From Escherichia coli (GTDB lineage Bacteria; Pseudomonadota; Gammaproteobacteria; Enterobacterales; Enterobacteriaceae): a stretch of DNA of 64,000 nucleotides. The stretch's first letter is position 1; every line of letters starts with the position of its first letter. Made by a program: the position numbers and the translations under genes. The stretch lies in the NCBI RefSeq assembly GCF_030013205.1, contig NZ_CP122648.1. One strand, 5' to 3'. The notes beneath the pieces are model-generated. The model ran no database searches. It had not been told where the DNA came from and saw only the letters and a program-made list of their open reading frames with translations. Below, piece by piece: positions 33,485-36,164 of the stretch.

Positions 33485-33949
33485 CTACTTTCTCAGTTTG
33501 TCCCACCGAACCGCTGATACGATACCCCAGTTGCCGCTAGGATTAGGCCTACGCCATTTTGCTGTCTCCATGCTACGAAGATACTCAAGAGCTTCAGCAA
33601 ACGTGCCAAAACGCTTCTGAGCCGCTTTATCACCTACGCCAAACGAACCATCACGGGTGCTCGCCAAACCGGGGTGAAAACAGGAACCATCGGCTGCGTA
33701 TGGAACCAACAGTTCCGAGTCGTTATCTTCAGATGGGCCAGGCGCTAACAACTGCCACGGCTCAACGCTCAGAGCGTTAGCCAGCACCTCAATCGCATCC
33801 AGAGACGCATTAGAGCCACCACGTTCAATTCTGCTCATATAACTACGTGCAAACCCGCACCGATCGGCAAAGGCCTCTTGGCTCAATCCGGTGGCAATGC
33901 GCAGTTCTTTTACCCGCTCGCCAAACTGTATTCTCAGGGATTTTTTCAT
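33485..33949 (-). CDS. XRE-family HTH transcriptional regulator with unknown C-terminal domain (154 aa)
   Basis: ATG at 33949 gives MKKSLRIQFGERVKELRIATGLSQEAFADRCGFARSYMSRIERGGSNASLDAIEVLANALSVEPWQLL (Cro/C1-type HTH) followed by about 90 unassigned residues. Confidence 0.75.
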   Translation of the reverse strand: MKKSLRIQFGERVKELRIATGLSQEAFADRCGFARSYMSRIERGGSNASLDAIEVLANALSVEPWQLLAPGPSEDNDSELLVPYAADGSCFHPGLASTRDGSFGVGDKAAQKRFGTFAEALEYLRSMETAKWRRPNPSGNWGIVSAVRWDKLRK

Positions 33950-34189
33950 GCACTGAATGTGCAATTTTGACCACTGTAAGGCCACGCTCCATATGAGATA
34001 TTTTGAATCCAATCTCACTTCAGCGAGCTTAGTCACTAGCATTCATCGGCTGTATCATGACAATCCTTTTTGATTCAAAACAAACACCAATGGTGACATT
34101 TAAAACCCAACAAGTATGATGATCATCATCGGTTGGGCGTCACCAGCGTTCGCTATCAGGCGCGATGTGGTTTGGAAAGTGAGGGAATC

Positions 34190-34684
34190 ATGACGGGAGC
34201 AGACTTTTTATTACCGATTGCAGCGGGAGCCGCGATTAGCTGGGCCAGTTATAGTGTAGTTGCCCATGCTGTATCAAAGCAGCACATCAGCACGCTACGC
34301 GCAACTGTATGGGGTGCTCTGGGCACTCTCTCATTGGTGCTGGGCGTATGCGCCTTTTCTGCTGTAGGTGCTGAGCATCAGACAGCACGAAAAGATATCG
34401 TATGTGCAGATGACAACCCGGAATGCTATGCGAAAACGCACCATAACCCGGTCAGGGAGTGCAAAAAGGTAATGGATGAGAAAGCGAAGTTTCGCCATGT
34501 GTGGCAAGAAAGCGAAGCGCCTGTATTTAATACTTATCTCTGGCACGATGAGAACGCGAAGATTATTCAGGCATTTGGGCAACAAGCTAAGGTAGTTAAC
34601 AGCCTGGGGATGCTAGCTCCGCTTCAATACTTTTGTGTTTTCAACGCAAAAACAGGAGAAGTCATTGCGGCCTCTTTCGAATAA
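34190..34684 (+). CDS. Hypothetical membrane protein (164 aa; two N-terminal TM helices, Cys-containing C-terminal domain)
   Basis: ATG at 34190 with RBS GAGGGA; MTGADFLLPIAAGAAISWASYSVVAHAV...VWGALGTLSLVLGVCAFSAVGA... then soluble domain; divergent from the XRE gene. Confidence 0.6.
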   Translation: MTGADFLLPIAAGAAISWASYSVVAHAVSKQHISTLRATVWGALGTLSLVLGVCAFSAVGAEHQTARKDIVCADDNPECYAKTHHNPVRECKKVMDEKAKFRHVWQESEAPVFNTYLWHDENAKIIQAFGQQAKVVNSLGMLAPLQYFCVFNAKTGEVIAASFE

Positions 34685-34744
34685 AAATGTGAGGGAATTC
34701 ACCCTAACATCAAAAATAAACTTATGTAATGACCTCGCATTTAA

Positions 34745-35590
34745 TTATTCATTTAAAGATTCAAGAAATGTCCAGCCTTTATGAGTAACATAATACATTT
34801 GTCCTTTTGCCCCTCTTTCAATCACAAAATCAAAGGATAACAGTTCGTTAAGTGCGCCCTCCCAACGGGCTACCTCTCTAGCCGAACTTCCACCAAAGGA
34901 TTGATTTCCCGCTTGAATATCCGTGCCACCTAAATGCCTTATCACATAAATTGTTCCGCTATCATCGACACATGCTAATTTCAGCAAACTGAGTGCATCG
35001 GCGGACAAATTACTTTCTGGCAAAGATTGACTTGTATTCGCATCAGGAGAATTGTTAATGGTAGATATAAGAGAAGACAAATAAGGGCTACTAGAAATAA
35101 TTATCGAAAGTTGCCTACGGACTTTTTCTTTGAAATCAGATAAGTCATTAAAAGACTCTATCAATCCCTTTTGCATGCACTCAGTTTTGAACAATTTAAG
35201 AGACTCATATTGTTCTCTATCAAGGCTTTCAGGGGCAACAGGCTTTGAGGAAAAGTAAATCATTGCCGGTTTTCCCGCATTCAAATGACGGTGGATTTCT
35301 TCGACTGTTCCGCTGGCCTCGTTCCCAGTCGGTGAGCCTAGACGAGTCCAAAACACACCGATTAATAAATCACAATCTACTAATAATCTTTGATTAATCA
35401 ACTCCTGAGGCCTAACTCCTAATTCGGGTGATGTATGAGTTTCCCATCCAATTGGTGTCAACATTACTTTTGAACGAGCTGAATTTATATCATTCCACTC
35501 ATGGATCATTTCACGAATGACTTGTCTCTCTTCAGCGACATCACCAGGAGAAGCAATCATTACAGGGATAACAGTTGCTGTGTAAGCCAT
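34745..35590 (-). CDS. Two-domain hypothetical protein (281 aa) with DUF4062-like N-terminal domain
   Basis: N-terminus VIPVMIASPGDVAEERQVIREMI...VDCDLLIGVFWTRLGSPTGNEASGTVEEIHRHLNAGKPAMIYFSS matches the DUF4062 pattern (S..D..EER ... CD..I.....R.G ... SGT..E ... GKP); C-terminal ~120 aa unassigned; start 13 nt after recombinase stop. Confidence 0.65.
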   Translation of the reverse strand: MAYTATVIPVMIASPGDVAEERQVIREMIHEWNDINSARSKVMLTPIGWETHTSPELGVRPQELINQRLLVDCDLLIGVFWTRLGSPTGNEASGTVEEIHRHLNAGKPAMIYFSSKPVAPESLDREQYESLKLFKTECMQKGLIESFNDLSDFKEKVRRQLSIIISSSPYLSSLISTINNSPDANTSQSLPESNLSADALSLLKLACVDDSGTIYVIRHLGGTDIQAGNQSFGGSSAREVARWEGALNELLSFDFVIERGAKGQMYYVTHKGWTFLESLNE

Positions 35591-35603
35591 AAACTCTCCA
35601 TAT

Positions 35604-36164
35604 TCAATCGGTAATAGCTGCTACAGTCGCTCTTGAAACGCCATATTGACGCGCTAACGCACTGATACTCAAACCGCTATTCTTTTTCTCTAAAATCTCT
35701 CTACGGGCTTCTGACGCGATTTTAGGAGGTCTGCCCAATTTCTTACCTTCGGCTTTTGCTCGTGATAGTCCCGCCTGAGTGCGCTCAATCAGCAGATCAC
35801 GCTCCATCTCCGCAACCGCGGCGAGCATAGATAATAGCAACTTCCCAGCGGCAGAAGTGAGATCTGTGTTACCAAGCTGGTGGACAAGAACCTTGATATT
35901 ACGGTCAGCCAGCGCCCTTACCGTTTGCAAGACGTCAATCGCATCACGCCCCAGACGATCAAGCTTCGCTACCACCAACGTTTCACCATCGCGGATTTTA
36001 TTGAGCATTTCAGAAAATGCTTTACGTTGCATTGCCGGAACCTTCCCGCTAACAACATCGGCAAACCAGTAATCAATTTGCCACCCAGCCTGCCCAAGCT
36101 CCAGCCGTTGGTTCTCAGTATCCTGCTGCGATGTCGAAACACGTCCGTAGCCAAAAGTTGCCAT
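35604..36164 (-). CDS. Small serine recombinase, resolvase/invertase family (186 aa)
   Basis: ATG at 36164 with SD GGAG; MATFGYGRVSTSQQDTENQ... (catalytic Ser region), ...VAKLDRLGRD..., C-terminal HTH LSISALARQYGVSRATV. Confidence 0.85.
   Translation of the reverse strand: MATFGYGRVSTSQQDTENQRLELGQAGWQIDYWFADVVSGKVPAMQRKAFSEMLNKIRDGETLVVAKLDRLGRDAIDVLQTVRALADRNIKVLVHQLGNTDLTSAAGKLLLSMLAAVAEMERDLLIERTQAGLSRAKAEGKKLGRPPKIASEARREILEKKNSGLSISALARQYGVSRATVAAITD

Follow-up and report, generated by a model that had tools for sequence, protein, structure and literature searches.

What do four adjacent genes accomplish together within a small integrative element beside the leuX tRNA gene of Escherichia coli, or is it instead just one of the four that is relevant to defence against phages? 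The stretch of DNA in question, 'the window', is 64,000 nt of E. coli contig NZ_CP122648.1 (assembly GCF_030013205.1), with all coordinates given here in window numbering. An earlier, sequence-only reading of the window had grouped a serine recombinase, a DUF4062-like protein, a two-transmembrane (2-TM) protein, and an XRE-family regulator into a single block, suggested to be a defence, abortive-infection, or phase-variable module. Our answer is that the idea of defence holds for one of the genes but fails for the four as a module. That is, the block likely consists of cargo plus backbone of a 7.3-kb leuX mini-island, with the cargo gene encoding an autonomous, single-gene DUF4062 anti-phage protein of 281 amino acids (aa). 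What carries this reading are the protein's architecture, its conserved motif residues, its genomic autonomy, its status as cargo, and a divergence among alleles that is centred on the presumptive sensor. NADase activity and phage protection, by contrast with these observations, are predicted, i.e., from homology with the recently described Swarozyc and Evangelion proteins.

All four open reading frames are found at the coordinates and on the strands that the sequence-only reading had given, and all are RefSeq-annotated genes in E. coli Nissle 1917:

33485-33949, minus strand: XRE-family regulator, 154 aa, a backbone gene, divergent from the 164-aa gene (Pfam HTH_31, 4.7e-14)
34190-34684, plus strand: 2-TM membrane protein, 164 aa, a backbone gene, convergent on the 281-aa gene (no Pfam family)
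34688-35612, no strand: exchangeable cargo segment, ~925 bp, with the DUF4062 gene alone inside (nucleotide homology boundaries)
34745-35590, minus strand: DUF4062 protein with stalk and winged-helix AUX domain, 281 aa, a predicted single-gene NADase abortive-infection defence
35604-36164, minus strand: serine recombinase, 186 aa, a backbone gene (Pfam Resolvase, 1.4e-36, plus HTH_7)

Published DUF4062 defence proteins

DUF4062 has been described as a TIR-like NADase (Osinski et al., bioRxiv 2026, doi 10.64898/2026.05.01.722283). In that study, E. coli is defended from BASEL phages by single proteins that carry an auxiliary (AUX) domain at the C-terminus; these come from Klebsiella, E. coli/Shigella, Acinetobacter, Yersinia, and Salmonella. 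With one of these Swarozyc proteins, KpSwz (WP_202404386), the catalytic glutamate and the AUX domain both are required, NAD+ is depleted, and infection is abortive; structurally, KpSwz possesses a helical stalk and a winged-helix AUX domain, the latter binding the phage portal (Osinski et al., same source). Evangelion was defined independently, as a DUF4062 core with a diversified AUX region, encoded by one gene and carried by mobile elements (Ibarra-Chavez et al., bioRxiv 2026, doi 10.64898/2026.06.25.731849). Its Eva01 lineage is tied to phage recombination/replication functions and its Eva03 lineage is active in E. coli (same source). The earlier statement that the block matches no named system is thus out of date, as single-gene DUF4062-plus-AUX proteins have been named in these 2026 preprints. 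By the same token, the mechanism class is already published and the 281-aa gene opens no new kind of biology.

The 281-aa protein

Assignment of the 281-aa protein to the DUF4062 type, as earlier suggested, holds. The match to Pfam DUF4062 (PF13271) is marginal (E = 3e-4, residues 10-99) and that to PADLOC model PDC-S60 is 5.8e-27 (residues 8-167), with PF13271 also being carried by many close homologues. The latter model is a candidate one and the match partial, meaning that a PADLOC scan, which the sequence-only reading had proposed along with Pfam searches, supplies a lead without a name from current defence finders. The Pfam searches similarly delivered in part, i.e., families for the recombinase, the 281-aa protein, and the helix-turn-helix (HTH) of the XRE protein, and none for the 164-aa protein.

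More than 2,000 homologues were found. Nearly all of the best 120 span the full length (~280 aa); their identity is 52-66%, and they come from Proteobacteria as well as from other groups, with full-length homologues being spread over many phyla. As these full-length homologues conserve the AUX domain together with the core, the C-terminal half is part of a conserved protein rather than an orphan, contrary to the earlier description of the C-terminal ~120 aa as matching nothing. An AlphaFold model (pLDDT 81) begins with an alpha/beta core of five strands (residues 1-122), followed by a beta segment with long helices (123-180). A disordered linker (181-196) then leads to a compact C-terminal domain (197-281) which, behind the helical stalk, folds as a winged helix. 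The core possesses a TIR-like or nucleoside-deoxyribosyltransferase-like (NDT) flavodoxin fold. A stalk and winged-helix AUX domain behind such a core is what is described for Swarozyc in the strict sense. A PDB sequence search with the protein gave no match, and two fold searches returned no Swarozyc entry.

Invariant among 43 aligned homologues are W49-E50, S93-G94-T95, and E97-E98, the last two making up the motif S93-G94-T95-x-E97-E98. An Enterococcus DUF4062 protein reads 'SGTIAE' where the 281-aa protein reads 'SGTVEE', with E98 aligning with the Enterococcus glutamate, which points to E98 as the putative glutamate common to these lineages. Equating these motifs with E87 and W51-E52 of Eva01 or with E97 of KpSwz is by motif context only.

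Plasmids were searched with tblastn (72,556 plasmids, E<=1e-5), with ten organism groups shown, the smallest having one record. Matches tie the 281-aa protein to annotated DUF4062 proteins, and include Enterococcus (155), Rhodococcus (9), Synechococcus (5), Priestia (2), and Salmonella (1). Most are confined to residues 1-160, i.e., to the redefined DUF4062 domain of ~164 residues, with full-length plasmid relatives being proteins of Synechococcus pANL and of a Caulobacter plasmid. Among phage genomes, tblastn found no homologue of the 281-aa protein.

Two side observations concern these searches. A 728-kb Salmonella Senftenberg 'plasmid 2' (NZ_LN868944.1), which carries rpoD, dnaG, and mug and therefore probably is a piece of chromosome, encodes a DUF4062 homologue (49% identity over the core) whose gene comes directly behind that of a large terminase, where a capsid/portal/terminase module ends; an IS3 transposase gene directly follows and appears to truncate that homologue. 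Separately, the 90%-identity cluster holding the 281-aa protein (785 members) also contains the unrelated 186-aa recombinase, a clustering artefact that matters for member counts and in which the two are probably bridged by a fused or read-through gene call.

Allele divergence and proposed mechanism

The same leuX island occurs with a second DUF4062 allele, type B (WP_000331919.1), versus the type A (WP_000331917.1) of this window. Backbone proteins of type-B islands are 99.7% (integrase), 99.4% (XRE), 97% (DUF1643), 91% (2-TM), 87% (NIPSNAP), and 84% (recombinase) identical to those here. The two DUF4062 proteins are 65% identical overall, though as 87% over the core versus 45% over the stalk and 53% over AUX, and the type-B nucleotide alignment drops out between window positions 35123 and 34789. 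Further alleles, at 61-83% identity, are found in Klebsiella, Enterobacter, Serratia, Yersinia, Edwardsiella, and Citrobacter. A conserved enzymatic core joined to a fast-diverging sensor end would be the pattern of an immune receptor under phage pressure, this being a reading of identities and not a test of selection.

By homology with Swarozyc and Evangelion, the 281-aa protein would rest as an autoinhibited oligomer. Its AUX winged helix may then recognise some phage-made trigger, the portal in the case of KpSwz and, with Eva01, something linked to recombination/replication functions. Binding of that trigger would rearrange the cores into an active NADase, and the resulting NAD+ depletion would give rise to abortive infection. 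The earlier suggestion of an anti-phage or abortive-infection sensor/effector is in this way supported, as a prediction, via the DUF4062 family.

Genomic autonomy

The neighbourhoods of 80 homologue-encoding loci from different species, a survey which the sequence-only reading had itself proposed, were examined for the recombinase, the 2-TM gene, and the XRE gene. None of the three is adjacent in 77 of the 80. The recombinase is adjacent in three, the 2-TM gene is present in two, and the XRE gene is present in two, all of these being enterobacterial versions of the same island. Nor did other partners emerge, as clustering of 523 neighbouring open reading frames, from the 74 non-enterobacterial loci that yielded them, gave no recurrent partner family; the commonest neighbours, generic ABC-type ATPases and tyrosine integrases, occur at just 6 of the 74 each. 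At the genomic level, that is, core plus AUX make up a one-gene unit for which no partner is obligate.

Sister islands and exchangeable cargo

The converse is seen as well, with UTI89, H9Ecoli, and plasmid pFLI21_1 having the recombinase, 2-TM, and XRE genes together but no DUF4062. Related islands compare as follows (percentages are identity to this window):

This window and Nissle, at leuX: all backbone genes; cargo is DUF4062 type A
254D-1 and L083, at leuX: recombinase 84%, 2-TM 90-91%, XRE 99-100%; cargo is DUF4062 type B (65%)
UTI89, at tRNA-Thr: NIPSNAP 92%, recombinase 92%, 2-TM 69%, XRE 88%; Gabija (GajA 4e-283, GajB 9e-235), with no DUF4062 and no DUF1643
EDL933 (O157:H7), at leuX: recombinase 83%, XRE 90%, no 2-TM; two uncharacterised genes
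W619, at tRNA-Gly: recombinase; an AIPR/AbiU-like gene (2.2e-13) directly downstream of the recombinase, cut by IS1
H9Ecoli, at tRNA-Gly: DUF1643, recombinase, 2-TM, XRE; slot empty, with a methyl-directed restriction enzyme (1.7e-70) beyond XRE
pFLI21_1, a plasmid: DUF1643 84%, recombinase 91%, 2-TM 88%; slot empty

Homology to the DUF4062-less backbones ends at 34684-34687, which is the 2-TM stop codon, and restarts at 35613-35617, the last codons of the recombinase. These sharp edges delimit a cargo segment of ~925 bp, holding the DUF4062 gene alone. Terminal repeats are lacking from the segment, and it has no k-mers in common with the empty slots. The four genes are not one system, that is, but instead an island backbone (recombinase, 2-TM, and XRE) plus a swappable cargo gene, and in related islands the backbone holds different defence cargo, either in this slot or in ones next to it.

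The slot genes of EDL933 (L089 positions 3530-5771) encode proteins of 438 aa (WP_000997747.1) and 257 aa (WP_000047841.1), the latter with a signal-peptide-like N-terminus. Neither has a PADLOC match, and both are candidate defence cargo.

Weighing the alternatives

A number of points weigh against treating the 281-aa protein as an autonomous defence protein of the published kind. The Pfam match, as noted, is marginal, and the fold of the core is a common one, i.e., flavodoxin-like. One tested Evangelion lineage, Eva02, is without protection (Ibarra-Chavez et al., doi 10.64898/2026.06.25.731849). The KpSwz landmark residues (D16, R18, D71, E97, W176, W238, Y239, the last two being in the hairpin that binds the portal) match at three or fewer of seven positions at any single offset, among 164 retrieved proteins, with neither the Salmonella nor the Enterococcus homologue reaching four of seven. 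As the landmarks do not map at a single offset, KpSwz probably represents a different sub-lineage, and the trigger of the 281-aa protein may differ from that of KpSwz. In addition, the protein or its type-B sister possibly is the already tested E. coli Swarozyc, 'EcDUF4062' or EcSwz (UPI0002A39D72); among the cluster members read, no UniParc identifier matches the tested proteins (EcSwz, KpSwz, and Eva03). Lastly, the DUF4062 gene of Enterobacterales is without exception located behind the recombinase gene, at a conserved 13-nt junction, so there may be a local functional tie, at least co-transcription.

This final point deserves elaboration. The 13 nt between the recombinase stop codon and the DUF4062 ATG include a GGAGAG Shine-Dalgarno sequence, and the arrangement (stop codon, 13 nt with Shine-Dalgarno, ATG) is kept in every DUF4062-bearing island variant, even at 61-65% DUF4062 identity. 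No promoter-like or terminator-like site was found between the two genes, in a scan that is uninformative as its counts are at or below shuffle expectation. Given the short gap, the kept junction, the gene's own Shine-Dalgarno sequence, and no intervening promoter or terminator, the DUF4062 gene probably is co-transcribed with the recombinase, from the recombinase promoter. A stronger interpretation is that the two genes make up a functional pair in Enterobacterales, e.g., through regulation by the recombinase HTH or through capture or mobilisation of a cassette. For this there is, besides the invariant junction, a right-hand cargo boundary that always is at the recombinase stop codon, and two distant loci have a serine recombinase of ~35% identity at 1.3-1.7 kb from the homologue (one further locus has a weak partial match). 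We nonetheless consider such a pairing to be unlikely: no serine recombinase is nearby in 75 of the 80 loci, junctions of different cargos have no motif in common, terminal repeats and sequence shared with empty slots are lacking, and the simplest reading of the junction is co-transcription only.

Very unlikely, in turn, is the four-gene system, in which the XRE protein would control, the membrane protein would act as effector or sensor, the DUF4062 protein would be the sensor or effector, and the recombinase would be a switch. The genes are, to be sure, adjacent and co-inherited in ~424 E. coli genomes, with the same order kept in the type-B island, and the XRE HTH resembles restriction-modification controller proteins and matches capH-like PADLOC models. 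That co-occurrence, however, is limited to one enterobacterial island family, within which a Citrobacter island lacks the 2-TM gene and a UBA5654 island lacks the XRE gene, and published DUF4062 systems act as single genes. Since the trio is not adjacent in 77 of 80 loci and also persists where DUF4062 is absent, a four-gene module is unsupported.

The backbone might instead be a dedicated cargo platform, with the recombinase capturing and exchanging defence genes directly downstream of itself, akin to an integron though based on a serine recombinase. Such a platform would explain how one slot, at three tRNA sites, comes to be filled by various DUF4062 alleles, by an AbiU-like gene, or by unknown genes, or else is left empty. 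We give this a slim chance, as neither a recombination site nor terminal repeats were found at the cassette ends, nor a target sequence in the empty slots.

Separately from how the gene is arranged, the 281-aa protein might not be immune in function, but might rather process nucleotides, as an NDT-superfamily enzyme, or act as an addiction-type toxin stabilising the island. In opposition to this are the fastest divergence being that of the winged-helix, sensor-like AUX domain; a patchy spread by horizontal transfer together with a mobile-element location; known defence genes in this and neighbouring slots of sister islands; and NADase-dependent defence as shown for the family in two independent studies. 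A non-immune role accordingly strikes us as quite improbable.

The recombinase itself is a small serine recombinase of the resolvase/invertase type, with a C-terminal HTH (Resolvase plus HTH_7). Its scores against gamma-delta/Tn3 resolvases (1e-25) and against Gin-type invertases (6e-23) are about equal, and it matches phrog_125 'DNA invertase' at 1e-55. There is no transposase open reading frame inside 32978-40319 such as a Tn3-family resolvase module would have, no specific search for a res site having been made. The recombinase is 83-92% conserved in islands with other cargo. That it is a Hin/Gin-type invertase switching expression of neighbouring genes by DNA inversion, as the earlier phase-variation idea would have it, is barely credible despite the phrog_125 match, source names such as 'Pin-like', and a 21-nt imperfect inverted repeat (12 nt exact) at 34209-34229 and 35596-35616 that brackets the 2-TM gene body and the DUF4062 gene, as that repeat is one among 24 similar pairs in 10 kb (with ~3 exact 12-mer inverted repeats expected by chance, an estimate), as resolvase scores are as good as invertase scores, and as, among ~425 E. 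coli matches at >=95% identity, 424 places cover >=80% of the 2.9-kb query colinearly with no inverted isomer. An invertible segment was rejected on these grounds, i.e., inverted repeats at chance level and high-identity E. coli copies that all are colinear.

The element and its surroundings

The sequence-only reading also had described a small, tRNA-integrated element, and this is borne out. A tyrosine integrase gene adjoins tRNA-Leu(CAA), and exact 28-nt direct repeats, which duplicate the 3' end of the tRNA gene, enclose 7.3 kb (32978-33005 to 40292-40319). The G+C content of the element is 0.44-0.49, with that of flanking core genes being higher. Its remaining features are:

32978-33005, no strand: attL-type direct repeat, left end of the element, an exact 28-nt copy of 40292-40319; the same pair bounds the type-B island in L083
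36357-36823, plus strand: DUF1643 gene, frameshifted (RefSeq 'frameshifted' in Nissle)
37829-38161, plus strand: NIPSNAP-family protein, 110 aa, a backbone gene (RefSeq annotation), 87-92% conserved across variant islands
38294-40246, minus strand: tyrosine integrase, 650 aa, DUF6538 plus Phage_integrase (phrog_1 integrase, 2.8e-32; Pfam on the identical L083 protein)
40295-40379, or 40292-40379 with the repeat, minus strand: tRNA-Leu(CAA), leuX (ARAGORN), with the attR-type repeat in its 3' end

The DUF1643 gene carries its frameshift both in this window and in Nissle 1917. Type-B islands have an intact version of 155 aa, and the gene's position in UTI89 is taken by a complete Gabija system. 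A third, degenerate (68%) copy of the 28-nt att repeat is found at 33094-33121, 116 nt inside the left end of the element, and may be a trace of tandem or earlier integration.

Outside of the element, left of the 32978-33005 repeat, is a gene for a 274-aa AbiJ-NTD4 protein (31623-32447, minus strand), matching PADLOC PDC-S32 over its full length at 5.6e-104. This is a second candidate defence gene, located in an older island remnant. It neighbours a gene for a phrog_11802 protein (30948-31574, plus strand), with IS30 and IS3 fragments alongside at 28.1-30.9 kb.

Of the other backbone proteins, the 164-aa one has one strong transmembrane segment (residues ~38-62), a weaker hydrophobic segment (5-27), and five cysteines. 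Pfam gave no family for its soluble domain. It matches phrog_20749 over its full length (1e-102), and no copy was found by tblastn among 50,697 phage records; as PHROGs include prophage-derived proteins, phrog_20749 presumably comes from prophage or island sequences. Its gene is present without DUF4062 in UTI89 (69%), pFLI21_1 (88%), and H9Ecoli, and is absent from the Citrobacter and EDL933 islands. The XRE protein has HTH_31/HTH_3 over residues 8-63, closest to the restriction-modification controller protein C.AhdI (1.5e-11), with its C-terminal ~90 aa matching no family, and is 88-100% conserved in islands that lack DUF4062 or hold other cargo. The recombinase, the membrane protein, and the XRE regulator probably serve in maintenance or regulation of the element.

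Of 5,426 complete E. coli genomes, 424 possess the 2.9-kb block at a coverage of >=80%, Nissle 1917 and many porcine enterotoxigenic E. coli (ETEC) strains among them. The recombinase/DUF1643 backbone was found in 731 genomes. A 9.9-kb contig assigned to a 'Collinsella sp.' metagenome-assembled genome (JAIJJM010000048.1) encodes proteins that are 98-100% identical to those of this E. coli island in all nine of the genes tested, AbiJ neighbour included, and almost certainly is a misbinned E. coli contig.

Implications

Should the prediction be true, then ~8% of complete E. coli genomes, among them those of the probiotic Nissle 1917 and of many pig ETEC, would carry an active, NAD+-depleting abortive-infection gene, one that current defence finders leave unnamed and which PADLOC 2.0 sees just as a partial candidate match. 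This would be relevant to phage therapy and to the engineering of Nissle. The allele series, i.e., near-identical core and diverged winged-helix sensor within one island, in addition offers a natural experiment on AUX sequence versus phage specificity. The island family also flags candidate defence genes, e.g., the two EDL933 genes found in the same slot.

Comparison with known systems

As with Swarozyc, the 281-aa gene encodes a single protein in which an N-terminal DUF4062/TIR-like core with a conserved catalytic glutamate is followed by a beta segment, a helical stalk, and, at the C-terminus, a winged-helix AUX domain. Mobile or defence islands of Enterobacterales harbour both, and the Swarozyc tested set includes an E. 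coli/Shigella protein. The difference is that the KpSwz landmark residues do not map onto the 281-aa subfamily, a comparison made via published descriptions and landmarks rather than sequences.

As with Evangelion, a DUF4062 core and a diversified AUX region are combined in one gene on mobile elements, with conserved W-E and glutamate motifs, and the core matches a plasmid set (Enterococcus, Rhodococcus, Synechococcus, Priestia, Salmonella) that mirrors the published Evangelion-positive census. Unlike with Evangelion, the gene resides in a chromosomal tRNA island instead of on a resistance plasmid, and the Enterococcus proteins align over residues 4-159 only, at ~35% identity, with a different AUX. 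Eva01 would imply closeness to the staphylococcal pMw2 protein, and no Staphylococcus is among the plasmid groups shown at E<=1e-5.

TIR NADase effectors (Thoeris ThsB/ThsA, TIR-STING, TIR-SAVED, SARM1) are more distant, at just 8-17% identity. There is, in addition, no sign of signalling-nucleotide production with the 281-aa protein; sensing and killing would instead share one polypeptide, with no partner gene.

Small integrative elements of E. coli, e.g., P4-like satellites, reportedly include hotspots for defence cargo, as are said to have been described by Rousset et al. in 2022 and Hochhauser et al. in 2023. The likeness here is that a mobile backbone, located at tRNA sites, is conserved and its slots are variable. 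Unlike with P4-like hotspots, the backbone consists of a DUF6538-type integrase, NIPSNAP, DUF1643, a small serine recombinase, a 2-TM protein, and an XRE regulator, with no primase, capsid-redirecting, or P4-like genes. A literature search found no description of this backbone. What is comparatively new, if modestly so, is this island family, i.e., one in which a conserved recombinase/2-TM/XRE backbone is combined with variable defence slots.

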